DNA of 64,000 bases, from NCBI GenBank assembly GCA_963760605.1, contig CAVXFA010000062.1, positions 6,174 to 70,173 of the forward strand, written 5' to 3'. The position numbers were made by a program, and so were the translations under genes. Every line of letters starts with the position of its first letter. The stretch's first letter is position 1. Shown here piece by piece: positions 27,334 to 55,918 of the stretch. Under the pieces are notes generated by a model. It was given only the letters and a program-made list of their open reading frames with translations, had not been told where the DNA came from and ran no database searches. Source of the DNA: an uncultured delta proteobacterium. GTDB lineage: Bacteria > Desulfobacterota > SM23-61.

Positions 27334-27378
27334 AAATCCCCCCTTGCCCCCCTTTAGTAAAGGGGGGTGGGGGGATTT
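27334..27378. repeat. palindromic G6/C6 element, copy A (AAATCCCCCCTTGCCCCCCTTTAGTAAAGGGGGGTGGGGGGATTT)
   Basis: One of three near-identical ~46 bp palindromes; the others are at 37987-38034 and 55183-55228. This one is intergenic, upstream of the flavoprotein gene. Confidence 0.8.
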
Positions 27379-27503
27379 AGGGTATTTTCTAATAAAGTGA
27401 TAAGCAGGCAAACCGCCCCAGAGGAATGCATTTCCCCCTTGGCAGGAATAACCGAGTTTGCTAAGGTAATGGCAATGCCAAACGGGAAAGTTAGGAGGGG
27501 CGT

Positions 27504-28073
27504 ATGAGGGTCATAGGGATTTACGGAAGCCCGCGGCGGGGGGGAACACGGAACTCCTCCTCCGAGAGCTACTTCGAGGGTAGTCGGGACGCCGGGGCAG
27601 AGGTTGAGGAGGTATTTCTCCGGGAGCTGAAAATTACGCCCTGTTTAGAAATCTACGCCTGCCGGAAAGATGGGAGATGCCCGATTCATGATGATATGGA
27701 ATTCCTCTATCCCAAATTGGCAGAGGCTGATGTGGTGGCTTTAGCTTCGCCGGTCTTCTTTTACTCCGTCAGTGCCCACGTGAAGGCGGTCATAGACCGC
27801 TGCCAGGCCATGTGGGCCAAAAAATACCTGCTGAAACAGCCCATTGCGCCGGAAAAACCTGGGAGGAAAGGGGTTTTCCTCTCCGTAGGCGGTTCCCAGG
27901 GGAGTAAAATCTTTGACGGGCCGCTCCTGACCATGAAATATTTTTTTGATGCTCTGGATGTGATGTTCTACCGATCTCTTCTTTTTAAAAGTATCGACGC
28001 CAAGGGTGAAATCCTGGAACACCCTACAGCCTTGGCCGAAGCTTACGCCCTGGGAAAGGAATTGGCCACTTGA
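27504..28073 (+). CDS. NAD(P)H-dependent FMN reductase / iron-sulfur flavoprotein-like protein
   Basis: Flavodoxin-like fold (VIGIYGSPRRGG) with the compact Cys cluster CLEIYACRKDGRC. Confidence 0.7.
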   Translation: MRVIGIYGSPRRGGTRNSSSESYFEGSRDAGAEVEEVFLRELKITPCLEIYACRKDGRCPIHDDMEFLYPKLAEADVVALASPVFFYSVSAHVKAVIDRCQAMWAKKYLLKQPIAPEKPGRKGVFLSVGGSQGSKIFDGPLLTMKYFFDALDVMFYRSLLFKSIDAKGEILEHPTALAEAYALGKELAT

Positions 28074-28879
28074 GCGAAATTTCCTGGATAGAAAAATTTT
28101 CTGCGGCACAAGAGGAAGGTTCTCTGGAAGATTATCGGGGAAGAAAAGGGAACATTTTGGTCATTGCTCCCCATCCAGACGACGATGTCCTGGGGGCCGG
28201 AGGGACAATGGCCATGGCTTCGTCCCAGGGGAAAGGGGTTTTTTCAGTTTATATCACCGACGGCGGCGGCAGTCCTCGGAAGGATCAAACCATCTCAGAT
28301 GATGAAATGGCCGACCGCCGCCAGGAGGAAGCCATATCCGCCCTGCAAGCCGTAGGCGCAGTGGGTGGATTTTTCTTGAAAATGCCCAGCGCGCAATTGG
28401 AAAAGGAAATGGAGCGAAAAGCGGAGAAAGAGCTGGTGGAGATCCTCCAGTTTATCCGGCCTGAAGAAGTGTTTCTCCCTGCTCCCTATGAGCGACATCG
28501 CACGCATCAACGTTCCACCCATTTGTCCATCGAGGCTTTGCGCCGGACCGCGCCTCTGAAAACAATCCTCCTCGGCTACAGCCTCTGGGGTTCTTTCTGG
28601 GGGGAGAAAAAGAGGGTGGTGCGAGATATCACCCCCTTCATCAAGAAAAAACTAGGGGCGGTCATCGCCCACGCCAGCCAGATCGATTACAAAAATTACC
28701 AACAGGGCATCCTGGGTAAAAACAATTTCGAGGCCATCTTCTGGGAAAGCCACGAACCATCCAAAGCGGCTTTTGTAGAAATATTCTTGGACATGACGGA
28801 ACTACTGGAAAAGAGGGACCTGACCCTGGAAGCCTTCATGCGCCAGGATTTGGAAGCTTTCATCCAGGCCTTTTTATGA
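28070..28879 (+). CDS. PIG-L / LmbE family N-acetylglucosaminyl deacetylase
   Basis: ILVIAPHPDDDVLGAGGTMA signature. Confidence 0.8.
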   Translation: MSEISWIEKFSAAQEEGSLEDYRGRKGNILVIAPHPDDDVLGAGGTMAMASSQGKGVFSVYITDGGGSPRKDQTISDDEMADRRQEEAISALQAVGAVGGFFLKMPSAQLEKEMERKAEKELVEILQFIRPEEVFLPAPYERHRTHQRSTHLSIEALRRTAPLKTILLGYSLWGSFWGEKKRVVRDITPFIKKKLGAVIAHASQIDYKNYQQGILGKNNFEAIFWESHEPSKAAFVEIFLDMTELLEKRDLTLEAFMRQDLEAFIQAFL

Positions 28880-29054
28880 TTCGCGAGGCTCCTTTGCAGC
28901 TGGGCCTGGATAGAACCGGGAAAGATAGGTATAGAAAACTGGCGGTGGCAAGCTTGTCTCCCCTATTTACCCGGATAGATGATCGGAGTAGGATGAAGGA
29001 TAAGCCGAAAAGGGAATCAGGTCTGCGGGTGAATAGCTGAACTGGGGGAAAGAG

Positions 29055-29306
29055 ATGAAAGTGACTCGGGAGATCGTTTGTTCTAAGTGCGGAAAAAAAC
29101 AGATTAAAGATGAGGAAGAACTCTTGCGAGAGGATCTTTTTTGGCGGACTTGTGAGTTTTGCAACTGTTATGGTTTAGGGTTCGTCACCAGGCGGAAATT
29201 CACCATCCGGGAATGGATGGAAGCGCTATTTTTCACCATAGGCTTTCGGGTCACGGAGGTTGAGGCTTTTTTAAAAAGATTATTAAAGAACCATCCCCCC
29301 CTTTGA
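29055..29306 (+). CDS. small zinc-ribbon-like hypothetical protein
   Basis: CSKCGKK...CEFCNC, four Cys in two CxxC pairs. 83 aa. Its 3' end overlaps the convergent Smr gene. Confidence 0.35.
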   Translation: MKVTREIVCSKCGKKQIKDEEELLREDLFWRTCEFCNCYGLGFVTRRKFTIREWMEALFFTIGFRVTEVEAFLKRLLKNHPPL

Positions 29307-29583
29307 GGTCTACCTCTCGCTGGAACCTTTCCACCCAAGATTTCCCTTCCTTCTCGCACCACGCAGGAATCACTTCGCGGAGAATCCCCCTCCCTGCGGG
29401 GCTCCCCAGCCCTTTCCCATAAACGATCCGTACGGCCGAAAGTCCTGCCCGATAAGAAATCTTTACGAAATTCCTTGTCTCCTCCAGCGCTTCCTTCACG
29501 GAAAGCCCGTGCAGGTCCAGCGTGGGTTTGATATCCGAGGCGCCTTCCTCCCACAACTTTCTTAACAACCCTCTCAAACTCAT
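29251..29583 (-). CDS. Smr domain protein
   Basis: LDLHGLSVKEALEE...VRIVYGKG, the Smr/MutS2 C-terminal-type domain. Confidence 0.7.
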   Translation of the reverse strand: MSLRGLLRKLWEEGASDIKPTLDLHGLSVKEALEETRNFVKISYRAGLSAVRIVYGKGLGSPAGRGILREVIPAWCEKEGKSWVERFQREVDLKGGDGSLIIFLKKPQPP

Positions 29584-29709
29584 CGTCCTTCTTCTTTTTC
29601 AGGGTTCCAACCAGTTGACGTCAAATTCCTGCTAAGCATTTTATTGACTCTCTTCCCGGAACTTGATAACTTATAAAAAAGATCCAAATATGTCAACCAG
29701 TGAGTAAAA

Positions 29710-30240
29710 ATGAAAAGTGCATTCACGATTTTCCGGGTCAAAGTAGGATGGATGGGTCTGGTGGGGAATGAAAAAGGAGTTCAACGGATATTCCTCCCGG
29801 GCTTAAAGAAAGAAGAGCTGCGGCAGCGCATCCTTGCGGAATTCCCAGAAGGCCGTGAGGCGGCCGCTTTCCTGGGCCGGGCGAAAAAAGAATTAAGGGA
29901 ATATTTTTCTGGGCGCCGGGTGCGGTTCGATTTCCCTCTGGAACTCTCGGGCGCCACTCCCTTCCAGATGAAGGCCTACAAGATAATGGCTACAATCCCA
30001 TTCGGAGAAGTGCGCACCTATCGCTGGCTAGCCCAAAAGATTGGAAATCCCAAAGCCCTGCGCGCTGTGGGAGGGGCGAACGCCAAGAACCGCTGGCCTT
30101 TGGCGATTCCCTGCCACCGGGTGGTCGGTAGCGATGGACGCCTGACCGGGTTTTCCGCCCCCGGCGGATTGGCTCTCAAGTCCCGGCTCTTAGAGCTCGA
30201 GGGTATCCTGGTTGAGAAAAACTGCGTGCGGCTCCTCTGA
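29710..30240 (+). CDS. ogt: methylated-DNA-protein-cysteine methyltransferase
   Basis: Active-site IPCHRVV motif; GANAKNRWPLAIPCHRVVGSDGRLTGF. Confidence 0.85.
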   Translation: MKSAFTIFRVKVGWMGLVGNEKGVQRIFLPGLKKEELRQRILAEFPEGREAAAFLGRAKKELREYFSGRRVRFDFPLELSGATPFQMKAYKIMATIPFGEVRTYRWLAQKIGNPKALRAVGGANAKNRWPLAIPCHRVVGSDGRLTGFSAPGGLALKSRLLELEGILVEKNCVRLL

Positions 30241-30245
30241 ATTTT

Positions 30246-30989
30246 TTAAAGGTGCTCCATTCTCCTCAGGGCTTCTTTTTTTCCCACCGTCGCCAGGTAG
30301 ATGGCCGTTTCCTCCTGGCCATCGACCCCCACCACCTCGTTGACCTCATCATCAAAGAAGGCCGCAATGCCGCAGCATCCCAGGTTCATGGCTGTAGCCG
30401 CCAGGTAGAGGTTTTGACCTATATGGCCGCAATCTAAATAGATATACCGATAAGCTCGCTGATGGTATTTCTGGCGGGAACGGTGAATCACAGCCACCCA
30501 GATAAAAACCACTGCTGCGGTATGGACTACGTCCTGGTCCAGGGCCGCCTCCGCGATTTGCCCGGAGAAATCTCCTTGTTTTTTCATCTCCAGGGCGAAG
30601 TCTGCGATGCGCAGGAAGTAGATTCCGGGCTCTAATCCTTCTACCCGATTGACCATTAAATACGTATCGATGGGATGGAGGGCGCCGGCTGAAGGAGCTG
30701 TCCGGTACCAGGGAGACGAGGTGATCTCGGTGATTCCCTGAGTGGCCCAGAGGAGGGTAGAGAGCCCCGCTTTGGAGAGGGGCTCCCGGATATAGTCGCG
30801 GATCGAGCGGCGCTTCTGCAGGACTTTCCATAAGCTCGGTCCGTTATCAATCTGGGGCTGGAGTAAAGAGATGATCCCGAGTGAAGGGGTTTTTGGGGTT
30901 TTCGCGGGTTTTCCTGGCCGATAAGAAGGGCGGAAATATTTCGTCTCCTGTTGGAATCGTTGGCCAATCTTCTGTTCTGATATTTCCAT
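30246..30989 (-). CDS. SagB-type / nitroreductase family dehydrogenase
   Basis: Nitroreductase-fold sequence. The start was taken at the internal ATG (MEISEQ...), because the track ORF begins with TTG 22 codons upstream. Confidence 0.6.
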   Translation of the reverse strand: MEISEQKIGQRFQQETKYFRPSYRPGKPAKTPKTPSLGIISLLQPQIDNGPSLWKVLQKRRSIRDYIREPLSKAGLSTLLWATQGITEITSSPWYRTAPSAGALHPIDTYLMVNRVEGLEPGIYFLRIADFALEMKKQGDFSGQIAEAALDQDVVHTAAVVFIWVAVIHRSRQKYHQRAYRYIYLDCGHIGQNLYLAATAMNLGCCGIAAFFDDEVNEVVGVDGQEETAIYLATVGKKEALRRMEHL

Positions 30990-31091
30990 TCTCCACCTCC
31001 ATTGATGATTGCCTATCCTCGAGGAGAGTTTAGAGAGACCGAGAGAACATGTCAACCTCTCGGGGCGGAAAAAGGTTGACCCTGACTTTTC

Positions 31092-32351: not shown

Positions 32352-32386
32352 TAAAAAGCATACTCCCGGGGACAACTCTTAGGCAC

Positions 32387-32492
32387 AATATTTTGAGGGA
32401 TTTTCTGATTGACAGGCAATTGACCTGTAACCTATACTGCTTCCATCACTTCATCTTAGGCTCCTTCCATCATGAAGCACGTTTCTATCATT
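32387..32492 (+). promoter_or_regulatory. promoter-leader cassette, copy 1
   Basis: TTGACA at 32409-32414, TTGACC at 32420-32425, TATACT at 32433-32438, then GCTTCCATCA, a ~23 bp insertion and CTTCCATCATGAAGCACGTTTCTATCATTT. It lies upstream of the Nramp-like gene. Confidence 0.7.
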
Positions 32493-32734
32493 TGCGAAAG
32501 AGAATGCAGAAAAGGGAAGTCATCTACAATATCCTGGGACCGGACAAGCTCCGGCAACGATAAGGTGTCATTGAGCGGGAGGTGTGAGGGACGGAAGATA
32601 CAGCCTGTGATAACTTCTTGGATACAGCAGTCTTCATCCCAGGCTTAATGTTGAAGGAAAGAAAGGAGGTGGATGGATCGAGTTCATTATATTCCTTTTG
32701 GAAGGCTGCTTCGGGAGAGTAAAACATAAAGGAG

Positions 32735-36232: not shown

Positions 36233-36410
36233 CTTCCCTCAGAGGGGAAACCGTCCCCTTCCGGAACGACCTTATGGAAAATTAGGCAAGACTGATCCAG
36301 AAGATCTTCGCGTTCGATCTCCTGCCCTGTCCCGGATGGCCAAAGCAGAGGAGGCTAGTAAGCTTCATCTGAGGACCCTCAGCTTATTAGAAAGACCCTA
36401 GCCCCCACAA

Positions 36411-36490
36411 GATTTTGATCGATTTTTCGATTGACATGCAACTGACTTGTGTCCTATACTCCTTCGGTCATGAAGCATTTGTTTACGGTC
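36411..36490 (+). promoter_or_regulatory. promoter-leader cassette, copy 2
   Basis: TTGACA at 36431-36436, CTGACT at 36442-36447, TATACT at 36455-36460, then CCTTCGGTCATGAAGCATTTG. Upstream of the permease gene at 36866. Confidence 0.65.
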
Positions 36491-36635
36491 ACAACGCGGG
36501 TTGGGGAGCTGAGGCTGTAGAATGATGCTCCGTTGATTTTCTATATGATGCGGGTCATTCTCGAAAAAGCCCTCGCCGTTCATTATGATAAAACTGCAAT
36601 TGGGAGAAAATAGGGGGGCCAGAAGGTCCCCCTAT

Positions 36636-36786
36636 TTATTAGTCAGTCCATAATTATATAGACGCCGAAGACCAAATCCCTCCTTCCCTCCCTTTACAAA
36701 AGGGAGGAATTTCCCCTCTTTGGAAAAGAGGGGTCAGGGGAGATTTTGGAAGAATATGTCTGGTCAATTATGGACTCCTTAGTAAC
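36636..36786. repeat. MITE-like repeat, copy 2
   Basis: Inverted copy of 16842-16980 with a short internal indel. It sits inside the leader between cassette copy 2 and the permease gene. Confidence 0.7.
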
Positions 36787-36865
36787 TTCTCCTCCAAGAG
36801 ATAGCAGCCAAGGCTGGTGTGATTTATTCGGGGAATCAAGAAGAACGAAGATACCCTGAAGCGGA

Positions 36866-37861: not shown

Positions 37862-37986
37862 AATGAGGGCGATTGGCAATTTTGGGAAGGAAGGATTTAC
37901 GATAGAAACATTACGATAGAAACATCTTGACCTGGATCAGCCGGTGATATAAACTAAATGCCACTTTTTTCGTTAGAAAATACTCT

Positions 37987-38034
37987 AAATCCCCCCACCC
38001 CCCCCTTTACTAAAGGGGGGCAGGGGGGGATTTT
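37987..38034. repeat. palindromic G6/C6 element, copy B
   Basis: AAATCCCCCCACCCCCCCCTTTACTAAAGGGGGGCAGGGGGGGATTTT, upstream of the small exported protein gene. Confidence 0.8.
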
Positions 38035-38124
38035 CATGGTTCGCGGGTGGCCAAACGGCCATGGGTAGTTTTGCCGAAATGCTCGGGGCTGATGGCTCTT
38101 TCTGCTTTTGAGGGGAGAAGTCGC

Positions 38125-40049: not shown

Positions 40050-40738
40050 TTATGATCATCAAATTAGATCATCTTGAAGTTATATTCGATAGTGGCCGGG
40101 AGACTCTGAAAGTCCTGGACATTCCTCATTGGCAGGTTGAGGAAGGGGATCAGGTAGCTATCTTTGGCCCCTAGGGTTCGGGCAAGTCCACGTTTCTCCA
40201 TGTTCTGGCCGGACTTCTTCCTGTATCGAAAGGGACGCTGAGCGTGTGCGGGCACTCTCTGGAGGGGATATCAGAGGCGGCCAGGGATCGTTTCCGGGCG
40301 AAGTATATTGGATATATATACCAGAATTTCAATTTGTTGCAAGGATATACGGCCCTGGAAAATGTCTTGATAGGGGTGACCTTCTCGGGGCGAAGGGGTG
40401 ATTTTAGGGAGGCCGAAGACCTGTTGGCCGAGGTTGGGCTTTCCCATCGATTGAAATATTATCCCTCCCAGATGTCCTTCGGTGAGCAGCAAAGGGTCGC
40501 TGTGGCCAGGGCCTTAGCGAATCGGCCTAAGCTTCTCTTAGCTGACGAGCCGACCGCTTCGTTACATCCGGTCAATAAGGAGGATGTCCTCAGGCTGTTG
40601 CGGGATATCTGCACAAGATACGGCTGCACCCTTGTGCTGGTCACTCACGAAAAGGAGGTCATCTCCTTGTTCGAAAAGACCATCCCTTTCCTGGAGTTTA
40701 ACCGGGTTTATCCGAACCATGAGGTGAGCCGGCCGTGA
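40050..40738 (+). CDS. MacB/LolD-type ABC transporter ATP-binding protein with an in-frame TAG inside Walker A
   Basis: Own translation from the ATG at 40050: MIIKLDHLEVIFDSGRETLKVLDIPHWQVEEGDQVAIFGP*GSGKSTFLHVLAG... The TAG is at 40131-40133. The paralogous fragment at ~43.85 kb has TCG at this position. The downstream part matches track ORF 40244..40738 (signature LSGGEQQR-like, Walker B LLLADEPT). Confidence 0.7.
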
Positions 40739-43033: not shown

Positions 43034-43945
43034 TCAATCTTTGAAATAACCTGCTGAGCTTTGGTTCTCAGTACAAAATAATCCAGCTCGTTGTCCTGAT
43101 TCTTTGATCCAGAGATCTCCTCTTCTTTGCCTTGCCATTCGACGAGCTTCAATCGGAGGAAGGGCAAAGGTCTGGCTATTTCCCCCCATTGCCAATACAT
43201 CCAATGTTACCATCATCAGCTGATGATCCTCACTTCTGCTGATAATTCCCGATAATCGCTCGGTCAATCGGGGATCACCGAGGGCATTCAGGATATAAGG
43301 GACTTCCATTTTCCTCTGGAGATTGATCTGGTCATACCTTTCCCAAATCCGATCGGCTATGCGAGTTGACCCGAGTTTGGCCAAGCTATGCGCGACGAAC
43401 AAACGGGTCTGAAATTCAGCTGAGCGAACCCCAAATGTGCTAAAGGTAACCCTCTTGACCAATTCGGACAAAATTTCCTCCAGCAAGGGAACCGAGTCGG
43501 TGTCCTTTAATTCGACAACATATCCTGCAGCCCTGATTTGGAGTGGGGGATTATCATTAGACTTCAAGCTTTCCCGGATGGTCGGCAGGGCGGCTCTTCC
43601 CTCTTTTTCATAAAGGATCCTTAGAGCATACAATGCTCGATTTTGATTTTCTTTTGCTAGCTGACCCGCCGCGACGCAAGCAGCACACCCCTCTGCGTTA
43701 CTTCCCCAGGAAAGCGAGAAGAAAAGGACCATAAAAAGAAGCCAGAGAAAGATGTTCTTCTCCAGGGAGTGCTTGCACACGGTGAGCTTTCCCTTCGATA
43801 TGGGAAGAAGGCCGGCTAGGATATGAAGAAAAGTGGACTTGCCCGAACCCGAGGGGCCAAAGAGGACTACCTGATCGCCTTCTTCTGCCTGCCAACGCGC
43901 AATGTCAAGACCCTTCAGAGTCTCCCGGCCACTATCGAATACCAC
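43034..43945 (-). CDS. chimeric ORF: a duplicated N-terminal fragment of the ABC ATPase (~60 aa) fused to an exported helical-repeat protein
   Basis: The N-terminus VFDSGRETLKGLDIARWQAEEGDQVVLFGPSGSGKSTFLHILAGLLPISKGKLTVCKHSLE is ~85% identical at DNA level to 40077-40250. It then runs into a signal-peptide-like stretch NIFLWLLFMVLFFSLSWGSNAEG and ~230 aa of helical repeats. GTG start; no upstream homology beyond the cassette. Confidence 0.5.
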   Translation of the reverse strand: MVFDSGRETLKGLDIARWQAEEGDQVVLFGPSGSGKSTFLHILAGLLPISKGKLTVCKHSLEKNIFLWLLFMVLFFSLSWGSNAEGCAACVAAGQLAKENQNRALYALRILYEKEGRAALPTIRESLKSNDNPPLQIRAAGYVVELKDTDSVPLLEEILSELVKRVTFSTFGVRSAEFQTRLFVAHSLAKLGSTRIADRIWERYDQINLQRKMEVPYILNALGDPRLTERLSGIISRSEDHQLMMVTLDVLAMGGNSQTFALPPIEARRMARQRRGDLWIKESGQRAGLFCTENQSSAGYFKD

Positions 43946-43971
43946 TTCCTGCTTCTTTGAATGGAAATACT

Positions 43972-44050
43972 TAGAAAATCTTTCGTGATTGACATGAAAT
44001 TGAGTTGTGTTCTATACTGCTTGCATAATGAAGCAGGTTCTTATCATTCT
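43972..44050 (+). promoter_or_regulatory. promoter-leader cassette, copy 3
   Basis: TTGACA at 43989-43994, TTGAGT at 44000-44005, TATACT at 44013-44018, then GCTTGCATAATGAAGCAGGTTCTTATCATTC. Upstream of the heme-PD40 gene. It abuts the truncated ATPase fragment on the other strand. Confidence 0.65.
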
Positions 44051-44117: not shown

Positions 44118-46181
44118 ATGAAAAGTCACCACCATATCTTTGCAGTTGCCTTTTTTCTGGGCTTCCTGGCGCTTGTCCCGATGGAATCTGGAGCCTACTT
44201 AGATCAAATCAAGGGCAAGAAGGGACCTACGGGGGACGTGGTCCTCCAGGTGGGAGCCATGCCCGTCCCCCTTCCCTCGCGGCGTCAAATCATCGATGCA
44301 GATAAGGGGGCTTTCTGCCTGCAATGCCATCGGATGCCGTATCCCACGGCCCCGCAAAAGCCAGCAAAGCCGGGCGAAAAGGCATTGTCTTCGGTTCAAG
44401 TTACCCCTCCGGGAGGATGGCGGCTCCTGACACCCCTCACCGGCTTCAACGCGATAGCCGGCGGATGGAGCCCGGATGGAAAGCACATCGTCTATTCGAT
44501 CAATCTCTTCGAGAAGGATTGGGATATCTGGGTCATGGATGCGGATGGCAAGAACCGGGCTCCCCTTATTTCGGGCTCGGCGATCAAAATGGCGCCGGAT
44601 TGGAGCCCGGACGGCAAATTCATCGTCTTTCAATCGAATCGCTCGGGAAACTTCGATATATGGATAATGGAAATAGCCACCAAGAAGCTGACCCAACTGA
44701 CCAACGAGCCAAGTGAAGAGACTATGCCCAGATGGTCTCCCGATGGGAAGAAGATCGTCTTCCAGTCTAATCGGTCTGGCAACGAGGATATTTGGACGGT
44801 GGATATCGCAACCGGCCAATGGACCCAACTAACCAACAGCCCGGCCAAGGATGAGAATCCTGTCTTCAGTCCCAACGGGCAGCAGATCGCCTTCGTCTCA
44901 GACCGAAACGGAAAGAAAGATATTTTTGTCATGAACGCTGATGGAAGTGATCAGAGAGCTCTCACCTCAGAACCCGGGGATAATATCGCTCCTCATTGGA
45001 GCCCGGATGGAAAGAAGATCATCTTTTCCCGCAAGGGTGCAGATAACAACCTGCATCTCTGGGTGATGAATGCCGATGGATCGGAGCAGATCCGCCTGAC
45101 GACCCATCCCACCTCGCAGATCGGTCCCTACTGGAGCCCGGACGGAAAGTGGGTCATCTTCACTTCCAACATCCGCGGCAACTGGGATGTCCTCCTGATG
45201 CAGGTGGATGCCTCCATGGTCGATCCATCTCGCAGCCCGCTCAAGCGCTTGACCGATAGCGAGGCCCGGGAGGTGGGCGCCATCTGGAGCCCGGATGGGA
45301 AGAAGATCGCCTACAACTCGGATGCGAATGGACATTGGAGCATTTGGACGATGGGTCCCGATGGTAAGAACAAGCGCCAACTGACCGGAGACGATGAGGA
45401 CGCCGGCTGGCCTTCCTGGAGCCCGGATGGGAAGAAGATCCTTTACTGGGGCTGCCGGGATGGCAACCAGGATGTCTGGGTGATGGATGCGGATGGATCG
45501 AACAAGAGGCGGCTGACCGATCATCCGGCATTGGATGGGGACGCGCAGTGGAGCCCGGACGGGAAGAGGATCGTCTTCGTCTCCGAGCGCACCGGCAAGG
45601 GTGATATCTATGTCATGGATGCCGATGGGTCAAACCAGAAGCGCCTGACCTTCACCGATGCCCTCGATTGGACGCCTTATTGGAGCCCGGATGGGAAGAA
45701 GATCGCCTATGTTTCCAATCAGACCGGGAAATGGGAGATCTGGGCATTGGACGTGGAGACCCTGGAGGGCAAGCACCTCACGCCTGATTCCGGTGGCAAC
45801 TTTGTGCCGCGGTGGAGGCCGCCGGATGGGAGTCAGATATGCTATGTGGGATGGCGAGGGGGTGAGTACACCATCAAGGGCAGTTTTGATGTGGTGGTCA
45901 TGAACGTGGACGGCAGCGGAAAGAGGGAACTGGCCCCGTCCCCGTTCGACGAGCGATCATCGCGTTGGAGCCCGGATGGTAGCAGGATCGTGTTTTGGTC
46001 CTGGCGAACCGGGAGCCCGCAGATCTATGTGATGAATGCGGACGGAAGTGGCTTAAGACAGCTCACTGACAATCTGGCCTACAATGTCTTCCCCTCCTGG
46101 AGCCCGGATGGAAAGAGGATTGCCTTCGAGTCTGACCGCATGGGCAACTTCGACATCTGGGTGATGGAAGTGCCGGAATAG
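44118..46181 (+). CDS. periplasmic TolB-like protein with 13 PD40 beta-propeller repeats and an N-terminal CxxCH heme-binding motif
   Basis: Signal peptide, then GAFCLQCHRM (CxxCH), then 13 repeats of the ..WSPDGK.I.F.. type. Confidence 0.7.
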   Translation: MKSHHHIFAVAFFLGFLALVPMESGAYLDQIKGKKGPTGDVVLQVGAMPVPLPSRRQIIDADKGAFCLQCHRMPYPTAPQKPAKPGEKALSSVQVTPPGGWRLLTPLTGFNAIAGGWSPDGKHIVYSINLFEKDWDIWVMDADGKNRAPLISGSAIKMAPDWSPDGKFIVFQSNRSGNFDIWIMEIATKKLTQLTNEPSEETMPRWSPDGKKIVFQSNRSGNEDIWTVDIATGQWTQLTNSPAKDENPVFSPNGQQIAFVSDRNGKKDIFVMNADGSDQRALTSEPGDNIAPHWSPDGKKIIFSRKGADNNLHLWVMNADGSEQIRLTTHPTSQIGPYWSPDGKWVIFTSNIRGNWDVLLMQVDASMVDPSRSPLKRLTDSEAREVGAIWSPDGKKIAYNSDANGHWSIWTMGPDGKNKRQLTGDDEDAGWPSWSPDGKKILYWGCRDGNQDVWVMDADGSNKRRLTDHPALDGDAQWSPDGKRIVFVSERTGKGDIYVMDADGSNQKRLTFTDALDWTPYWSPDGKKIAYVSNQTGKWEIWALDVETLEGKHLTPDSGGNFVPRWRPPDGSQICYVGWRGGEYTIKGSFDVVVMNVDGSGKRELAPSPFDERSSRWSPDGSRIVFWSWRTGSPQIYVMNADGSGLRQLTDNLAYNVFPSWSPDGKRIAFESDRMGNFDIWVMEVPE

Positions 46182-46220: not shown

Positions 46221-46340
46221 AATATTTGAGCGATTTTTTAAATTGACATGCAATTGACTTGTGTCCTATACTGCCTCCGTCGTCACTTTTTTTTCATTCC
46301 CTATGCCGCTTCCATCATGAAGCACGTTCCTATCATTTAC
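46221..46340 (+). promoter_or_regulatory. promoter-leader cassette, copy 4
   Basis: TTGACA at 46243-46248, TTGACT at 46254-46259, TATACT at 46267-46272, a 34 bp insertion, then CTTCCATCATGAAGCACGTTCCTATCATTT. A perfect hairpin, CTTCTCCCCCA gtt TGGGGGAGAAG, follows at 46366-46390. Confidence 0.7.
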
Positions 46341-46609
46341 ATAGAAAATACCCTAAATACCCCGGCTTCTCCCCCAGTTTGGGGGAGAAGGAAAGGGTAA
46401 GGGGAAAGAGGGATTTTTATCATTCGTGGGCGCCAAGCCGTCAGGAATGATGAGTTATGAAATGGAGTTTCCAAAAGGTACCAATACGTTGCCTCCAGGG
46501 GGGGTTTTAGGCCCTCTTGGAGGCTTTTGTATTTGGGCCTACGATAATGTAAGATTAGGCGGAAGACAAGGAAATCTGGTTCGCAACTTAAGGAAAAGGA
46601 GGAAGTAGC

Positions 46610-48353: not shown

Positions 48354-48436
48354 AATATTTTGAGCGGTTTTTTGATTGACATGCAATTGACTTGTGCCCT
48401 ATACTGCTTCCATCATGAAGGAAATTTCTATCCTTA
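48354..48436 (+). promoter_or_regulatory. promoter-leader cassette, copy 5 (most compact copy)
   Basis: AATATTTTGAGCGGTTTTTTGA, TTGACA at 48376-48381, TTGACT at 48388-48393, TATACT at 48400-48405, then GCTTCCATCATGAAGGAAATTTCTATCC. It sits 20 nt ahead of the cupin gene start. Confidence 0.7.
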
Positions 48437-48456
48437 GCGCCAAGGAGGGAACAGAA

Positions 48457-49024: not shown

Positions 49025-49083
49025 CCATACGGATCTAAGATCAAAAACGGATGTATTCGGTTCTTGGGCCTAAAGAGTTCAAG

Positions 49084-50605: not shown

Positions 50606-50659
50606 CCCCCCTCACCTCTATCCTCTCCCCCCGATGGGGGGAGAGGGGAGGGTGAGGGG
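50606..50659. repeat. large GC-rich palindrome (CCCCTCACCTCTATCCTCTCCCCCC gat GGGGGGAGAGGGGAGGGTGAGGGG)
   Basis: Imperfect ~24 bp inverted repeat in the 520 bp spacer upstream of gspE. An AT-rich tract lies nearby at 50440-50520, with TATAAT at 50505-50510. Confidence 0.6.
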
Positions 50660-50823
50660 ACAATTGTCAAAGAACTAAATGCGTTTGTATCAGCTTACCT
50701 CTCATTGTAGGTAGCTTTTGGCTCAAGTAATTCTGCACCTGCCGCTGCCAGTTTAAGGTGCTGTCCTAACCCTTTTTAGCTACCCGATGCAAAGGGTGAG
50801 TGGGTTCTGGATGGGATGTAGAA

Positions 50824-52533: not shown

Positions 52534-52540
52534 AGGAACG

Positions 52541-53755
52541 ATGGCCGAATATCTCTATAAAGCCACCACCCTCAGCGGAGAAACCGTGGAAGGTTCGATG
52601 GAGGGAAAGGACGAGAAGACGATTGTCCAGAGCCTGCAGCAACTTGGCTATATTCCCATTCACATCGTCTCTTCCGAGGAAAAGGGGGCTGGCGGGCGGA
52701 CGTCTTCCTTTTTGCCCCGGCGAGTCGGGGTGAAAAACCTGCTGGTTTTTACCCAGGAGCTCTCCACGCTGGTTTCCGCGGGTTTGCCCATCGACCGCAG
52801 CCTCCAGATCTTGGGATCCCTGACAGAAAACCGCAGACTCAAAGAGGTGGTGCAGGACATTTTAAAGCAGATCGAGGGAGGAAACTCTCTGGCCGAAGCC
52901 CTGGAGCACCATCCCCGGATTTTCTCCAGACTTTATATCAATATGGTCAAGGCTGGAGAAGCGGGAGGATTCTTAGATGTGATCTTGTCCCGACTGGCCA
53001 AGTATCTTCAAAGCACCAAAGAAATCAGAGAATACCTCATCTCCGTCATGATCTACCCTTTGATTTTGACGATGGTCAGCGGGATCTCGATGACCATTCT
53101 GGTCGCTTTTGTCATCCCCCGATTTGCCAGAATCTTTGCCGATATGAAGCAGGCCATCCCCCTGCCGACCCAGATCATGCTCTCGATCAGCCAGTCTGTC
53201 AAAGATTACTGGTGGGTGGGCCTGGGAGCCATCGCCTTGATCTACTTGGGGCTGAGAATGTACACCCAGAACGTGGAGAGAAAATGGCGCTGGGATCTCT
53301 TCAAATTGAGATGGGTCGCCATCGGAGATCTTATCAAAAAGGTAGAAATTGCCCGCTTTTCCAGAACGCTGGGAACCTTATTACAGAGCGGAGTTCCCAT
53401 TTTGCCGGCCCTAAACCTGGTAAAAGAAATCTCCCAAAATCTGGCGATTTCCAGGTCCATTGCCCATATCCATGACCGCCTACGAGAGGGCAAAGGAATC
53501 TCTAAATCCTTGGAGGAGACCAATATTTTCCCGCCGCTGGCCGTCCACATGATCGGCGTTGGGGAGGAAACGGGAAGGCTCGATGAGATGTTGACCAAGG
53601 TGGCCGAGACGTACGAGGAGAATGTTCAGACCACAGTAAAAAGGTTTGTATCCTTGTTGGAACCTCTGATCATCCTGGTCATGGGGGTGATTGTGGGGTT
53701 CATCGTGATCTCCATGCTCTTGGCCATCTTCAGCATCAATGAGATCCCCTTTTAA
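52541..53755 (+). CDS. gspF: type II secretion system inner-membrane platform protein GspF
   Basis: 404 aa with two GspF repeats and three TM segments. Confidence 0.85.
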   Translation: MAEYLYKATTLSGETVEGSMEGKDEKTIVQSLQQLGYIPIHIVSSEEKGAGGRTSSFLPRRVGVKNLLVFTQELSTLVSAGLPIDRSLQILGSLTENRRLKEVVQDILKQIEGGNSLAEALEHHPRIFSRLYINMVKAGEAGGFLDVILSRLAKYLQSTKEIREYLISVMIYPLILTMVSGISMTILVAFVIPRFARIFADMKQAIPLPTQIMLSISQSVKDYWWVGLGAIALIYLGLRMYTQNVERKWRWDLFKLRWVAIGDLIKKVEIARFSRTLGTLLQSGVPILPALNLVKEISQNLAISRSIAHIHDRLREGKGISKSLEETNIFPPLAVHMIGVGEETGRLDEMLTKVAETYEENVQTTVKRFVSLLEPLIILVMGVIVGFIVISMLLAIFSINEIPF

Positions 53756-53775
53756 TCTATTCTGGAGGAAGAGAG

Positions 53776-54210
53776 ATGAAAGAATGGGGGCATCGAAGAG
53801 AACGAGGGTTTACGCTGGTCGAAATTCTGGTGGTCATCATCATTATTGGGTTGCTGGCCGCCTTGGTTGGACCAAAATTATTTGGCAAAGTCAGCGTAGC
53901 CAAACAGAAGGCGACGAAAGCGCAGATTGAACTCTTCGGGACCGCCCTCGATGCCTTGCGGCTCGACGTGGGGAGATACCCAACCACCGAGGAGGGAATG
54001 AAGGCTCTGCGGGAGAAACCTTCTGGAATGGATGGATGGAAGGGCCCCTACCTTCCCAAAGAAATCCCGGTCGATCCCTGGGCAAGGCCATACCTTTACA
54101 AATGCCCGGGGGAACACGGTGATTACGACCTCATTTCTTACGGGCTCGACGGCACAGAGGGAGGGGAGGGAGAGAACCAGGACATCGTCAGCTGGAAGGA
54201 TATTGGGTAG
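53776..54210 (+). CDS. gspG: major pseudopilin GspG
   Basis: Prepilin motif G|FTLVEILVV, and the GspG-specific C-terminus ...DPWARPYLYKCPGEHGDYDLISYGLDG. Confidence 0.85.
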   Translation: MKEWGHRRERGFTLVEILVVIIIIGLLAALVGPKLFGKVSVAKQKATKAQIELFGTALDALRLDVGRYPTTEEGMKALREKPSGMDGWKGPYLPKEIPVDPWARPYLYKCPGEHGDYDLISYGLDGTEGGEGENQDIVSWKDIG

Positions 54211-54704
54211 TGAAAAACCGGGGATTTTCCCTCATCGAACTGGTCATCGTGTTGATCCTCCTCAGCCTCTCGATCTCCTTGGTGACGCCAGCTTTCTCCC
54301 GTTTTTCCAAGGGGATCGAGCTGAAGGCCGCTGTCAAAAAAGTTTCGGGGATCCTGCGCTATTATCGCAGCGAAGCCGTCCAAAAGGGGAAAGTCCAACA
54401 GGTTCTTTTCGATCCTGATTTGAGGGAAGTCAGGGTCCAATCGCCGGAACCGGCTGAGGATCAAGAAGGAACTGAGAAACGAGAAGAAAAGAGCTGGCCA
54501 AAGAAGTACCCTCTTCCCGAGGGGATCCAGATGAGGGAGGTGAAGATTGCTTCTCCGCAGTATCCCGCTGACTCGCCGGCGATTGAATTCTATCCCAACG
54601 GAGGATCGAACGGGGGTTCCATCCTTTTGGATCGACCGGACCATAAAGGATATCGGATCAAAGTTTATTTTCTCACGGGGATGGTGGAGATCGAGGGATC
54701 CTAA
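54210..54704 (+). CDS. gspH: minor pseudopilin GspH-like
   Basis: Prepilin N-terminus RGFSLIELVIVLILLSL. Confidence 0.65.
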   Translation: MKNRGFSLIELVIVLILLSLSISLVTPAFSRFSKGIELKAAVKKVSGILRYYRSEAVQKGKVQQVLFDPDLREVRVQSPEPAEDQEGTEKREEKSWPKKYPLPEGIQMREVKIASPQYPADSPAIEFYPNGGSNGGSILLDRPDHKGYRIKVYFLTGMVEIEGS

Positions 54705-54707
54705 AGG

Positions 54708-55118
54708 TTGTCGCCAATGAAAAATCGAGGATTTACGTTGATCGAAATCGTGGTAGCCATGGCCATCTTAGGGGTGGGGTTGATTGCGATCATCGAACTC
54801 TTTTCCGGGGGACTCCGTCTGGGAAGGGCCTCCGAAGAATATACGAGAGCAGTTGGTTTTGCCCGGATGAAAATGGAAGAATTCGCCTTAAAAGACCATG
54901 TGGAAGAAGGGAATGAGGTAGGGGATTTTGATAAAGACTTTCGTTGGCAGGTGGGGGTGAAAAAGCTGGACATTCTTCCCGCAGAAAAATTTACAGAGTT
55001 TCGACCCCCTGTCGAGCTTTATCAGATTAAAGTGAATATCATCTGGAAGTCCGGCTCCCGGGAAAGGTCTGCTGGAATTGAAACCTATAAGACGGTCAAA
55101 GTGGAGAACCAGGGATGA
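54708..55118 (+). CDS. gspI: minor pseudopilin GspI-like
   Basis: RGFTLIEIVVAMAILGVG. 136 aa. Confidence 0.65.
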   Translation: MSPMKNRGFTLIEIVVAMAILGVGLIAIIELFSGGLRLGRASEEYTRAVGFARMKMEEFALKDHVEEGNEVGDFDKDFRWQVGVKKLDILPAEKFTEFRPPVELYQIKVNIIWKSGSRERSAGIETYKTVKVENQG

Positions 55119-55918
55119 ACCGGGAGTTGACCCCGTTGTTGAATGAATTTTCCATGACGGATAGGTCACCCGCGAGCTATGAAAATCCCCCCCTGCCCCC
55201 CTTTGGTAAAGGGGGGTTGGGGGGATTTGGGTTTACCCTGATCGAAGTGATGGTCGCCTTTACGGTCCTTGGTTTTATTCTGCTCATCATTTTTGGAGTT
55301 TTCCGCCTGGGCCTTTCCGCCTGGGAGAAAGGGGAGTCTATTAAAGAGGAGTATCAGAAGGTGCGGATTATTTCCCAGTTGATCTCCCGGCAGATCAAGT
55401 CCATCGTTCCTTATAAAATCAAGACCCAAAAAGCAGAAGGGGATTATCTGGCCTTTGAAGGGAAAGCCCATTCTTTAAAATTCGTCTCTGCCCTCTCCCT
55501 CAAGGCAAGACGGCCCGAAGGTTTTGTCTATGCCGTGTACGAGTTTAAAGAGGGGGGCAGAGAGGGAGGGCGCTTCGTTCTTTACGAGGAGAGGGCCCTC
55601 AACAGGGATTTTATGGAAGAGAATCCCAAGGAGGAGTTGGGGGTTTCTCTATTAGAAGAAATTTCCGAGATGCGCTTTGAATATTATCAGGAGGAAGACC
55701 CAGAAAAGGAACAAGCCGGCGGATGGCTTACGGAATGGAATGCCAAGGAAAAAAGGGAATTACCCAAAGCACTCAGGATGACCCTCATCCATAAGAAGGG
55801 AAATGGGGAGAAGGAAGAATCCCCGATCCTCCTTTTGGCTTCCCTTCCTTCCAACCGATTTGAAGAAGTAAGAATAGGCCCCAGCCGGAGGGTTATTCCT
55901 CAGCGGCCTCCGAGATAA
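55115..55918 (+). CDS. gspJ: minor pseudopilin GspJ-like; the real start is probably at 55154 or later
   Basis: GFTLIEVMVAFTVLGF prepilin core. The annotated N-terminus reads through palindromic element copy C. Confidence 0.6.
   Translation: MNRELTPLLNEFSMTDRSPASYENPPLPPFGKGGLGGFGFTLIEVMVAFTVLGFILLIIFGVFRLGLSAWEKGESIKEEYQKVRIISQLISRQIKSIVPYKIKTQKAEGDYLAFEGKAHSLKFVSALSLKARRPEGFVYAVYEFKEGGREGGRFVLYEERALNRDFMEENPKEELGVSLLEEISEMRFEYYQEEDPEKEQAGGWLTEWNAKEKRELPKALRMTLIHKKGNGEKEESPILLLASLPSNRFEEVRIGPSRRVIPQRPPR
55183..55228. repeat. palindromic G6/C6 element, copy C
   Basis: AAAATCCCCCCCTGCCCCCCCTTTGGTAAAGGGGGGTTGGGGGGATTT. It lies in the gspI-gspJ junction, inside the apparent leader-peptide coding region of gspJ (it translates in frame to NPPLPPFGKGGLGGFG). 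Confidence 0.8.

Follow-up and report, generated by a model that had tools for sequence, protein, structure and literature searches.

Palindromes in a 64 kb window are probably the cores of a non-autonomous mobile repeat, one copy of which lies in the gspJ leader

Results and discussion

The three G6/C6 palindromes found in the window, which is the whole 64 kb stretch of DNA that was analysed, are probably the cores of a non-autonomous, selfish-type mobile repeat, the gspJ copy being tolerated as leader-coding sequence. The repeat is seemingly a REP/PATE-like selfish element that is undescribed so far, and searches of Rfam and the literature identified no matching family or paper. The features discussed are listed in Table 1.

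Table 1. Copies of the element, related sequences and associated genes in the window.
Feature	Position	Full element	Strand	Remarks
Core copy 1	27334-27379	27302..27398	+	full-length, ~97 nt
Core copy 2	37987-38033	37963..38065	-	full-length, 3' boundary approximate
Core copy 3	55183-55228	55149..55228	+	3'-truncated, 80 nt, inside gspJ
Degenerate composite relative	36650..36787		+	family D6, pairs I2 and I6
Second composite copy	16842..16968		-	I2 (72 nt, 100%), I6 (38 nt, 92%)
Isolated 3'-module match GGGGTATTTAGGGTATTTTCTA	46331..46363		-	pair I11 with 27370-27402, 85% complementary
gspI, minor pseudopilin	54708..55118		+	ORF list, Pfam N_methyl
gspJ CDS	55115..55918		+	267 aa; ORF list, Pfam T2SSJ and N_methyl
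Recombination tract carrying the element allele	55123..55228		+	~106 nt; three-way alignment

Architecture of the repeat unit

The three palindromes lie where the sequence-only reading had located them (Table 1). The full palindrome pattern, with up to 3 mismatches allowed, had 0 matches across 100 dinucleotide shuffles, and the inner core CCCCCCTTTNNTAAAGGGGGG is expected 0.03 times by chance. As had been proposed, each core forms a hairpin of about 20 bp; it has two tiers, with fold energies of -35 to -37 kcal/mol for RNA and -20 to -21 for DNA (z-scores -3.3 to -4.5). However, the repeat unit is not the 46-bp palindrome, which is only the core, but an asymmetric sequence of ~97 nt. An asymmetric 5' flank, CCATGRCC..CACCCnCGAnCYATGAAAAT, is common to the copies, and a 3' module, ATTTAGrGTATTTTCTAA, is common to copies 1 and 2, with copy 2 in the opposite orientation.

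Read 5' to 3', the full unit (~90-100 nt) consists of a short hairpin (ATG-stem-loop-stem-CA), a spacer (CCCkCGAACC), the two-tier hairpin (ATGAAAATC6-N2-3-C6TTT-N3-AAAG6-N2-G6ATTT) and a 3' tail, which is TATTTTCTAAnTAA in the subfamily found in the window and TCATATAAA in a sister subfamily. The arms of the small 5' hairpin covary: five arm combinations occur, all of them perfectly paired, and 3.83 pairs are observed versus 3.16 in shuffled data (maximum 3.38, 1000 shuffles). In about 95% of 64 copies, two of the three sense frames run through the core without a stop codon.

Copy 1 is composed of a 5' module, the small hairpin of which is degenerate, followed by the G6/C6 two-tier hairpin and the 3' module GGGTATTTTCTAATAAAGT. 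In copy 2, the small 5' hairpin TGGCC/GGCCA is intact, the 5' end CCCATGGCC lies at 38065 and the reverse complement of 37963/37970-37986 makes up the 3' module; copies 1 and 3 are the partners of this copy in the inverted-repeat pairs I3, I4 and I8. Both are intergenic, as had been noted, but to place them just upstream of start codons was imprecise: the adjoining ATG and GTG codons belong to the element itself. The true neighbour gene of copy 1 starts at 27504, ~105 nt past the end of the element, and copy 2 has a promoter-like site (37927-37955) on one side and the next gene on the other, with the likely signal-peptide start of its neighbour ~60-80 nt away.

It had also been suggested that the G6 runs form G-quadruplexes. 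The two G6 runs in each arm make two-tetrad arrangements formally possible, but the canonical motif of four G3+ tracts with loops of 1-7 nt is absent from all copies on either strand, and the competing duplex hairpin is extremely stable. GGGAGG variants of the G6 runs in the family keep complementarity, which suggests that the conserved feature is the stem, and it is extremely improbable that the runs act as G-quadruplexes, or as i-motifs on the C-rich strand, in DNA or RNA.

Related sequences are also present in the window. The degenerate composite relative (Table 1) includes two small hairpins, CCTCCCTTTACAAAAGGGAGG and CCCCTCTTTGGAAAAGAGGGG, flanked by AAATCCCTCC and GGGGAGATTTT, and mosaic architectures of this type are common among the metagenome copies. 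The second composite copy is inverted and is missing one inner hairpin, and its 72-nt stretch is identical to 36716-36787. The isolated match consists of the 3' module only, with no hairpin.

Distribution and insertion sites

Close relatives of the repeat were found at at least 120 loci in metagenomes, and the repeat is common in sediment and groundwater bacteria. The 124 oriented copies, which include these loci and the three copies of the window, split into two subfamilies, and conservation falls sharply at either end. The proposal of a dispersed element family was thus borne out by copies scattered both in the metagenomes and in the window, where three canonical copies lie within 64 kb. Some copies are tandem or mosaic, and orthologous sites show present/absent variation.

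Among the matches listed, 101 of the 124 copies are intergenic, the upstream gene is on the same strand as the copy in 40 cases and on the opposite strand in 39, the corresponding figures for the downstream gene are 39 against 30, and the gene context is co-directional for 39 copies, convergent for 6 and divergent for 5. The orientation of the element relative to neighbouring genes is random.

Copy 1 is missing at the syntenic HU/FMN-reductase intergenic region of two relatives (four contigs, L246/L247 and L249/L250). In the window, 97 extra nt follow straight after TAAT(G), and the empty sites retain TAAT(G). The 5' flank is conserved: of 34 copies in subfamily A, 94% have TAA at positions -8 to -6, and of 61 copies in subfamily B, 52 have AA. 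The junction ambiguity is TG at copy 1 and AA at L222, a copy described below; as these dinucleotides differ, there is no consistent target duplication. Insertion would take place directly 3' of (T)AA(T), with no consistent target-site duplication, and would depend on a single-strand transposase of the IS200/IS605 or RAYT type that recognises hairpins and works in trans. No transposase was identified: no gene family was found to recur among the neighbour genes of the copies, and a search of 2.06 Mb of loci with an IS200 TnpA query, which is a weak test, had no match.

The core is present in at least 119 MAG or genome loci with labels that span many phyla, though MAG labels can be wrong; they include Nitrospirota, Desulfobacterota, Planctomycetota, Beta- and Gammaproteobacteria, Nitrospinota, Acidobacteriota, Ignavibacteria, CPR and others. 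A further 40 viral contigs carry the core, some as arrays. The core is modular: its flanks vary, and half-sites and arrays occur. Both this modularity and the near-identity of the core in viral contigs and in MAGs labelled as many phyla would fit a binding or recognition site for a widespread host or phage protein, such as a nucleoid, uptake or recombination signal, with the spread reflecting that function. However, there is no known candidate protein and no recurrent neighbour gene to supply one, copy 1 is present in the window but absent in close relatives, copies can be tandem or mosaic, and the phylum labels are fallible. A recognition site is hence considered quite improbable.

The gspJ copy and its reading frame

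The gspI stop overlaps the gspJ start as ATGA, an overlap of 4 nt also found in the relative L123, and GGAG or AGGAGG lies upstream of the gspJ ATG. GspJ matches Pfam T2SSJ and, at residues 39-60, N_methyl. The leader corresponds to codons 1-39 (55115-55231), with prepilin cleavage predicted between Gly39 (55229-55231) and Phe40 (55232-55234). Copy 3 has retained the 5' module (TTTCCATGACGGATAGGTCACCCGCGAGCTATG) and the complete hairpin. The TATTTTCTAAnTAA module is absent, and the copy runs straight into GGG TTT ACC CTG ATC GAA (G|FTLIE). In the gspJ frame it encodes ...YENPPLPPFGKGGLGGFG immediately before FTLIEV, in agreement with the sequence-only reading.

Two alternatives had been offered for this copy, namely that it sits in an intercistronic gap where it modulates translational coupling, or that it was exapted as leader-coding sequence. 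The first is not supported, as the frame is open from ATG 55115 through the whole hairpin to G|FTLIEV and the hairpin lies within translated gspJ. Use as leader-coding sequence is supported by the open frame and the SD-preceded ATG, but 'exapted' is an overstatement, there being no sign of selection for a function. The gap would require gspJ to start at TTG 55217, with the leader MGGFG and an untranslated element. This sole start-type codon past the hairpin loop is in frame, it would give a leader of ordinary length, and AAAGGGGGG before it could pair with the anti-Shine-Dalgarno sequence. However, it is inside the 3' arm, where the G-run abuts the TTG without usable spacing and is locked in the stem. 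The matching codon of the L123 orthologue is TGG, and that element-bearing gene therefore cannot use it. Moreover, the stop-free frame begins at an ATG from which the first 12 codons are common to relatives, and the frame was kept exactly by the replacement described below, which would be irrelevant if the element were untranslated. A start at TTG 55217 is thus very unlikely.

Origin of the gspJ copy

In 697 GspJ homologues, G|FTL[IV]E follows leaders of varying length. MNQRNRAKARIEKRYLPSGIGVFAPRG fills the slot of the element in the closest homologues, and among the 120 homologues listed out of the 697, only P0005 carries the element. The copy had been expected to be ordinary coding sequence if the element occurred nowhere else and homologues shared the leader. 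The leader of the relatives proved equally long but different in sequence, and since the element is present elsewhere, the gspJ copy is not ordinary coding sequence. A full-length intergenic copy, L292, has 1 mismatch in ~80 nt to the gspJ copy and retains the 3' module.

Alignment with the close relative L120 revealed a swap of exactly 80 nt for 80 nt between flanks that are ~97% identical. The swap is in frame and stop-free, and the Gly-1|Phe+1 cleavage site is kept. Inside the recombination tract (Table 1), the window agrees with the distant L123 at nearly all informative sites, and outside it with L120. The overall identity of the window is 96.7% with L120 and 81% with L123, whereas in two bins of 100 columns each across 55073-55256 the identity with L120 is down to 79% and 64%, and in the second of these the identity with L123 is 89%. 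The gspJ copy is 94% identical between the lineages, and the flanking coding DNA about 78-81%. Purifying selection on a function could account for this value of 94% as well as recent recombination does.

A 3'-truncated copy would have replaced 27 ancestral leader codons in gspJ, with junctions at short common sequences (AATGAAT on the 5' side, GGGT and CCTGAT on the 3' side). A microhomology or recombination step would have been involved, since simple transposition gives no equal-length replacement, and the allele would have entered this genome, or left its closest relative, via a homologous-recombination patch of ~106 nt. As the replacement is in frame and stop-free and recreated Gly at -1, the whole hairpin is translated in the 39-residue leader. 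Prepilin peptidase cuts off pseudopilin leaders, and this predicted removal would leave mature GspJ unchanged, so that the insertion would be tolerated. Such tolerance is enough to explain the gspJ copy; no function of the element in gspJ is shown, and none is needed to explain it. As counted from the homologue sequences, the net charge of the leader is about -1 when coded by the element, versus about +4 for the ancestral leader, a change that could impair membrane insertion or cleavage.

REP hairpins set gene ratios in some operons, and the hairpin might likewise be a selected cis-regulatory RNA that slows ribosomes or blocks 3' exonucleases between gspI and gspJ. It would then set the ratio of the G, H and I to the J and K pseudopilins, and the intergenic copies would stabilise mRNAs or serve as weak terminators in both directions. 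The hairpin is very stable (about -37 kcal/mol), its A-tract/GC-stem/T-tract layout (AAAATC6...G6ATTTT) is present in both orientations, the gspJ copy is more conserved than its flanks, and a C-to-T difference from L123 preserves a G-U pair. As the core is palindromic, random orientation is uninformative about such a role. However, the hairpin is absent from L120 and, P0005 excepted, from the 120 homologues listed out of the 697, and the excess conservation is attributable to the sharp-edged recombination tract. GspI, GspJ and GspK form a 1:1:1 tip complex, and a barrier between I and J would therefore be without obvious benefit. A terminator scan did not call the element hairpin itself, the single call at copy 3 being based on an alternative pairing, and copies were not enriched between convergent genes among the matches listed. 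A cis-regulatory role is accordingly regarded as unlikely.

In-frame copies in a leader are not confined to gspJ. L222 is an independent second case, in which a 90-nt subfamily-A copy lies in frame inside the leader of a PilX_N-like protein; without the copy, this leader reads MSKARKEKG|FILVIV.

Comparison with known repeats

PATEs, which are derived from IS200/IS605, lack both terminal inverted repeats and a target duplication; they carry subterminal hairpins and insert directly 3' of a short conserved target. The element agrees with them in all four respects, but no cognate TnpA/TnpB or autonomous parent element was found among the neighbour genes and in the 2.06 Mb of loci, and a search of the element against the Rfam IS605-type RNA returned no match.

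REP/BIME sequences resemble the element in being short, GC-rich imperfect palindromes that are mostly extragenic and occur in both orientations and in tandem or mosaic clusters. REPs have a conserved GTAG-type 5' tetranucleotide, whereas none was seen in the aligned element copies. A REPIN consists of two inverted REPs, whereas the element has no such symmetry, its 5' side carrying a small hairpin and its 3' side a tail. Unlike the core, which turns up in MAGs with the labels of many phyla, REPINs are described as lineage-specific and inherited vertically. REPINs (described in PMC3116915) are mobilised in trans by RAYT, a single-copy HUH tyrosine transposase. By analogy, trans mobilisation by a RAYT-like transposase is the model favoured for the element.

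Rickettsia palindromic elements (RPEs), which occur only in Rickettsia, measure about 150 bp. Like the element, they are short palindromic selfish repeats with intergenic and in-frame copies, as in gspJ and the L222 PilX-like gene, but there is no sequence relationship. RPEs lie in frame inside genes, where the added peptide segment is tolerated (PMC10969869). They add to the protein, whereas the gspJ copy replaces native sequence in a leader that is expected to be cleaved, leaving the mature protein unchanged, and most copies here (101/124) are intergenic.

Some bacterial MITEs carry ORFs that fuse to host genes (PMC10969869). MITEs such as Correia, ERIC, Chunjie and RUP are, like the element, small, non-coding and multicopy, show insertion polymorphism, and can occupy operons without destroying them. 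Unlike in MITEs, the ends of the element are not mutual inverted repeats, and the two reconstructed junctions have no TA or fixed duplication. Such near-identity of a core between phyla is not usual in REP or MITE families; a functional constraint common to the copies could lie behind it.

The palindromes are the core of a larger repeat

The three G6/C6 palindromes reported in the sequence-only reading were recovered, and a search with the 46-nt pattern, allowing up to 3 mismatches, found these three sites alone in the window and none in 100 dinucleotide-preserving shuffles. For the inner core, CCCCCCTTTNNTAAAGGGGGG, the chance expectation was 0.03 occurrences. As had been predicted, every core forms a hairpin, a two-tier stem of ~20 bp with a 3-nt loop, with folding energies of -35 to -37 kcal/mol as RNA and -20 to -21 kcal/mol as DNA (z-scores of -3.3 to -4.5). 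The length of ~46 bp originally assigned to the element fits the palindrome only, as the repeat unit is larger and includes an asymmetric 5' flank and a 3' stretch. Repeat finding aligned copies 1 and 3 over 81 nt, and copy 2 with both over 73 nt as the reverse complement; the alignments reach beyond the core because the 5' flank CCATGRCC..CACCCnCGAnCYATGAAAAT is common to all three. The 3' stretch ATTTAGrGTATTTTCTAA is common to copies 1 and 2.

Features of the window and consensus sequences of the element subfamilies (a slash marks an element end)
Feature	Position	Strand	Remarks
Copy 1	27302..27398	+	palindrome 27334-27379
Copy 2	37963..38065	-	palindrome 37987-38033
Copy 3	55149..55228	+	palindrome 55183-55228; 3'-truncated, in gspJ
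Composite element	36650-36787	+	~140 nt, same superfamily
Composite element	16842-16968	-	~140 nt, same superfamily
gspI	54708..55118	+	
gspJ	55115..55918	+	267 aa, leader codons 1-39
~100-nt cassettes	32387-32493, 36409-36491, 43967-44049, 46221-46338, 48354-48436		five copies
Inverted repeat arms	40076-40264 and 43760-43948		189 nt, 83% complementary, 3.5 kb apart
Repeat-containing ORF	44118-46181		687 residues
Subfamily A			..ATAA/CCCCCATGCCCGnnGCGGGCACAACGAAGCATGAAAATC6..G6ATTTTCATATAAA/
Subfamily B			window's type; ..(T)AAT/nnnCCATGnCC..CACCCkCGAACCATGAAAATC6nnnC6TTTnnnAAAG6nnG6ATTTgrrnnTATTTTCTAAnTAA/

A scan of metagenomes with a pattern that took in part of the 5' flank identified at least 120 loci, and a stack of 124 oriented copies, the window's three included, was assembled. 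Conservation falls sharply at either end of the stack, in which two subfamilies are distinguished. Mosaic variants carry a second small hairpin (CCTCCCTTTGGCAAAGGGAGG) in place of the right arm, and tandem copies were also seen. The two composite elements in the window are variants of this mosaic type; they have in common a 72-nt stretch that is 100% identical, and one inner hairpin is present in one copy only, a pattern that suggests recent duplication and then gain or loss of a module. At one locus recovered from two metagenomes (L165 11958-12060 and L167 498-600), flanks and stems are identical and the 3-nt centre of the hairpin loop is inverted, TTTAGCAAA versus TTTGCTAAA. Such a flip is what intrastrand template switching, or the processing of a cruciform, would be expected to produce in a palindrome.

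The paired G6 runs had also been thought capable of forming G-quadruplexes. A regular expression applied to both strands of all three copies found no four G3+ tracts with loops of 1-7 nt, only four G2 tracts, and family variants that lack the G6 runs still keep complementarity. A quadruplex role is hence extremely improbable.

Copy 3 is probably part of the translated gspJ leader

The operon order gspE-F-G-H-I-J-K-L-M-N-D is the same in relatives. Copy 3 lies in the coding leader of gspJ, as the sequence-only reading had observed, with the frame reading ...SYENPPLPPFGKGGLGGFG/FTLIEV across the cleavage site. The GspJ prepilin motif (...GGFG/FTLIEVMVAFTVLGFILLIIFG) has Gly at -1, Phe at +1 and Glu at +5, followed by a hydrophobic helix, and the same motif is found in the best 120 of 697 GspJ homologues. 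Pfam N_methyl matches residues 39-60 just below the cut-off of 21.2 bits (19.8 bits, E 5.5e-4), and the T2SSJ match scores 29.1 bits.

Two readings of this arrangement had been offered, in which either gspJ starts downstream of the element or the element serves as leader-peptide coding sequence. For a downstream start, the sole start-type codon past the loop is TTG 55217, located in the 3' arm right behind the G-run, and this codon is TGG in L123, a distant relative that also carries the element. The frame is open from ATG 55115, which forms an ATGA overlap with the gspI stop and follows GGAG (AGGAGG in L123), and an element-borne ATG occurs in frame at 55154. A downstream start is therefore very unlikely, and the open frame and upstream start signals support the element as leader-peptide coding sequence. 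The core is stop-free in two of three sense frames in ~95% of 64 copies, and in-frame coding insertions are therefore feasible. A 20-bp GC hairpin can thus be accommodated in a translated type II secretion leader with frame and cleavage motif intact.

An extended N-terminus shared by GspJ homologues, together with absence of the element from other sites, would have pointed to ordinary coding sequence. The element is present elsewhere. The length is shared, as leaders are long in relatives and reach 39 residues in the nearest, as here, but the sequences are variable. Leaders of the best 120 of 697 homologues are typically 27 residues long (MNQRNRAKARIEKRYLPSGIGVFAPRG, MFQRNKANVGFGKGWFTSGSDDRSTTG, etc.), to which 12 extra N-terminal residues are added in the nearest homologues. 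Leaders of this GspJ clade (P0001-P0120) are unusually long and hypervariable, commonly 27 residues, with calls of up to 39-77; those of gspG, gspH and gspI in the same operon have 4-11 residues, and ordinary pseudopilin leaders ~6-10. The idea that the 27-residue leaders are decayed ancient copies of the element was rejected by local alignment against shuffles, in which the leader DNA of L120 and L251 compared with three element consensus sequences gave a best p of 0.03, uncorrected for 12 tests.

Origin of the gspJ copy

In a DNA alignment, the window and L120, the closest gspJ relative, are nearly identical on either side of the gspJ junction, where 80 nt of ancestral leader in L120, which lacks the element, correspond to the 80 nt of element in the window. 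L123 (protein P0005, 78% protein identity) has the element at identical junctions. Of the element, the 5' module and the entire hairpin are retained in the gspJ copy, which is fused directly to GGG TTT ACC CTG ATC GAA, the stop-rich 3' module being gone. One base in ~80 separates it from L292, a full-length intergenic copy of another metagenome, which runs on as ATTTAGGGTATTTCCTGATAAA. As judged by this comparison, the junctions coincide with short common strings, AATGAAT at the left junction, GGGT and CCTGAT at the right one. The copy probably arose by insertion and then deletion, or by templated replacement via microhomology, and would have been kept by selection because the frame and Gly-1 were preserved. 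The equal length of 80 nt is probably a coincidence among in-frame outcomes. As a caution, by hand count from the sequences, the net charge of the new leader is ~-1 versus ~+4 for the ancestral one.

When the 3' module of the element (window 27380-27398; L292 ~975-995) is read in the frame that is open through the hairpin, it encodes G-Y-F-L-I-K/N, which resembles the prepilin motif G-F-T-L-I-E (window 55229-55250), and the L292 version (GGGTATTTCCTGATAAA) has CCTGAT in common with gspJ. This likeness could be due to chance, to microhomology aiding replacement, or to gene conversion.

Identity of the window over a 3.2-kb stretch of the operon is 96.7% with L120 and 81% with L123. Within 55123-55228, the window follows L123 at nearly all informative sites, and agreement with L120 resumes at 55231. 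The site pattern indicates that the element-bearing leader is carried on a ~106-nt patch exchanged by homologous recombination. Such a patch accounts for the absence of the element from the closest relative and its presence in a distant one, as well as for its being better conserved (94%) than its surroundings, though selection on a function may also underlie the 94% conservation. The locus would thus provide a clean natural case of a ~100-nt recombination patch swapping a leader between lineages ~19% apart in DNA.

Other coding copies

A 90-nt subfamily-A copy is located in frame, eight bases into a gene, at metagenome locus L222. The product past the element has a PilX_N match that begins at its first residue (E 1e-4, below the Pfam cut-off) and is followed by NHL repeats, and removal of the 90 nt leaves an ordinary leader, MSKARKEKG/FILVIV. 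From its sequence, L222 is a second, independent in-frame leader case. Another subfamily-A element is in frame in an 803-residue ORF (L208 456-2864, minus strand) with a spermidine-synthase domain and membrane segments on either side of the element; the ORF may be one gene that tolerates the insertion, or two tandem genes fused by reading through the element.

The element-coded peptide gave 10 matches in a representative protein search, seven of them to ORFs of at most 128 residues and the remaining three to proteins of 195-325 residues with repeated similar motifs; a word-indexed protein search returned P0241 only. Most 'proteins' containing this peptide are hence short spurious ORFs. Uncultivated Desulfobacterota, Nitrospirota and many other groups have genomes littered with the repeat, so that annotators should expect it. 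It yields spurious small ORFs (PPLPPFxKGGxGGF peptides) and can mislead the choice of start codon.

The GspJ leader is presumably removed by prepilin peptidase, as known for the family. As this enzyme removes everything before Gly-1, an in-frame copy in the leader would be erased at the protein level. It is tentatively suggested, though with less than even confidence, that prepilin (class III) leaders are a recurrent safe harbour for the hairpin element and that the modular C6TTT...AAAG6 hairpin, seen across phyla, could be the mark of an undescribed mobile system, the two proposals being weighed jointly. If this is true, selfish DNA could persist in essential secretion and pilus genes while supplying leader sequence, element leaders would be exchangeable between lineages as a small recombination cassette, and anaerobic sediment bacteria and their phages would share the enzyme of the mobile system through horizontal transfer. 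If leaders turn out to be favoured for insertion, or if the enzyme is found, the family would be a useful model for hairpin-guided DNA mobility across phyla. Copies in coding sequence are closest to the Rickettsia palindromic elements (PMC10969869), and the gspJ case carries this precedent for selfish DNA within genes over to a protein segment that is normally discarded. Unusual features are a modular core found across phyla, a hairpin of ~-37 kcal/mol translated in a leader expected to be cleaved, and a leader swapped by a recombination patch.

Evidence for mobility

The intergenic region between the HU gene (-) and the FMN-reductase gene (+), in which copy 1 lies, is syntenic in L246/L247 and L249/L250, all without copy 1; the flavodoxin proteins of these loci are 84-85% identical to that of the window. 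The window has 97 extra nt right behind TAAT(G), a target already present in the empty site. Of 34 subfamily-A copies, 94% have TAA at -8 to -6; AA is in the 5' flank of 52 of 61 subfamily-B copies, and TGAAT is native in the element-free gspJ. No consistent target duplication was seen at the two junction pairs reconstructed, where junction ambiguity is at most TG (copy 1) and AA (L222). Terminal inverted repeats are absent, as the 5' end (TGCCCCATGCC...) and the 3' ends (...TATTTTCTAAnTAA or ...TCATATAAA) are not reverse complements, and the inverted repeat of the element is internal.

The small 5' hairpin covaries, with five perfectly complementary arm pairs (TGCCC/GGGCA, TGGCC/GGCCA, TGACG/CGTCA, TGATA/TATCA and TGTCG/CGACA). 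Its mean pairing is 3.83 of 5, compared with a mean of 3.16 and a maximum of 3.38 in 1000 arm shuffles, a comparison that ignores the kinship of the copies. An empty target, a conserved 5' flank, no duplication and a covarying hairpin are in the style of IS200/IS605 and REP-RAYT single-strand transposition.

In the 124-copy stack, 101 copies are intergenic. Relative to the element, the upstream gene is on the same strand in 40 cases and on the opposite strand in 39, the downstream gene in 39 versus 30, and co-directional gene pairs number 20 versus 19. Since the core is a palindrome, this random orientation argues only against a strand-specific role of the asymmetric modules and is no argument against an effect of an RNA hairpin. 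A scan for intrinsic terminators did not pick out the element hairpin at copies 1 and 2 and picked out only an alternative pairing at copy 3, and the stem is followed by at most ATTTT or ATTTGGGTTT. That the element acts as a regulatory RNA hairpin is possible but rather unlikely, and such a role is not needed to explain the data.

All-against-all clustering of 3877 ORFs beside the copies gave housekeeping families only and no transposase. A phmmer search of 2.06 Mb with an IS200 TnpA query, which is no valid test for a RAYT, gave 0 matches. The element is best read as mobile, selfish DNA; as no transposase was found, we infer the transposition step, which would be single-stranded and hairpin-guided.

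Comparison with known repeats

Classical MITEs have terminal inverted repeats and a fixed target duplication, whereas the element has neither. Like any mobile repeat (MITE, REP or PATE), it is multicopy, dispersed and present or absent at orthologous sites, copy 1 being polymorphic among syntenic loci and the gspJ element being found in some relatives only. It resembles IS200/IS605-type PATEs in lying 3' of a short conserved target, with no duplication and no terminal inverted repeats, and its 5' hairpin, with kinship ignored, is like their subterminal hairpins under structural selection. REP/REPIN-RAYT repeats typically flank a RAYT (HUH tyrosine transposase) gene and occur as hundreds of near-identical copies per genome, with a lineage-specific sequence. 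The core of the element is found under many phylum labels, an argument against its being specific to a lineage. The family behaves most like REP/BIME and IS200/IS605-derived palindromic elements. As far as testable, its features are PATE-like; membership of a RAYT or IS200/IS605 system cannot be claimed, as this needs the enzyme.

Distribution across genomes and viruses

The bare core was found at no fewer than 119 loci of genomes and MAGs. Among the matches listed, the titles name Nitrospirota, many Desulfobacterota/Syntrophia, anammox and other Planctomycetota, Beta- and Gammaproteobacteria, Nitrospinota, Acidobacteriota, Ignavibacteria, Bacteroidetes, Dehalococcoidia and CPR, with a few isolates (e.g. 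Geomesophilobacter sediminis). Both outer arms are present in 16 of the listed genome matches, one in 61 and none in 13, and the hairpin therefore acts as a module. The core could instead be a protein-recognition signal common to many phyla; this reading takes up the breadth of the phylum labels, and we give it little credence beside a mobile element that is polymorphic at orthologous sites. MAGs of Syntrophales and Syntrophaceae (L034, L063) carry the variant with the extended 5' flank, in keeping with the 'Deltaproteobacteria/Thermodesulfobacteriota' names borne by the closest homologues of GspJ and the flavodoxin.

Across its 64 kb, the window has 3 canonical copies and 2 composite ones, and some MAG loci have up to 7 cores per 8 kb. 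Rfam 15 at the gathering score gave 0 matches in the window and 15 element-bearing loci, and E-value mode on copy 1 gave only chance miRNA-like matches of at most 18.5 bits. A full-text literature search with sequence strings and for repeats in these taxa found no described family. The repeat family hence appears to be abundant and undescribed.

The core was also present in 40 IMG/VR viral contigs, against a roughly estimated chance expectation of ~1. One contig labelled viral (L286, 3300035670_001258) has arrays of 3-4 cores with 39-51 nt spacing at 2240-2480 and 6080-6248, interleaved with a second repeat, ACGGTGGCGGCGAAGCCGCCAAGCTTTAG, in a BIME-like mosaic.

Other repeats in the window

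The ~100-nt cassettes comprise an AT-rich upstream stretch and a near-consensus promoter, TTGACA-18-TATACT, followed by GCTTCCATCATGAAGCAnGTTnCTATCATT, with different sequences downstream; the cassette looks like a promoter and 5' leader reused for a gene set. Each arm of the 189-nt inverted repeat is at the start of an ORF, the two ORFs being oppositely oriented; the arms probably represent the upstream and N-terminal regions of paralogues. The 687-residue ORF repeats a unit of ~132 nt about ten times in tandem, with WSPDGKKIVF as the recurring motif, and its product resembles a beta-propeller repeat protein of the TolB or WD40-like kind.
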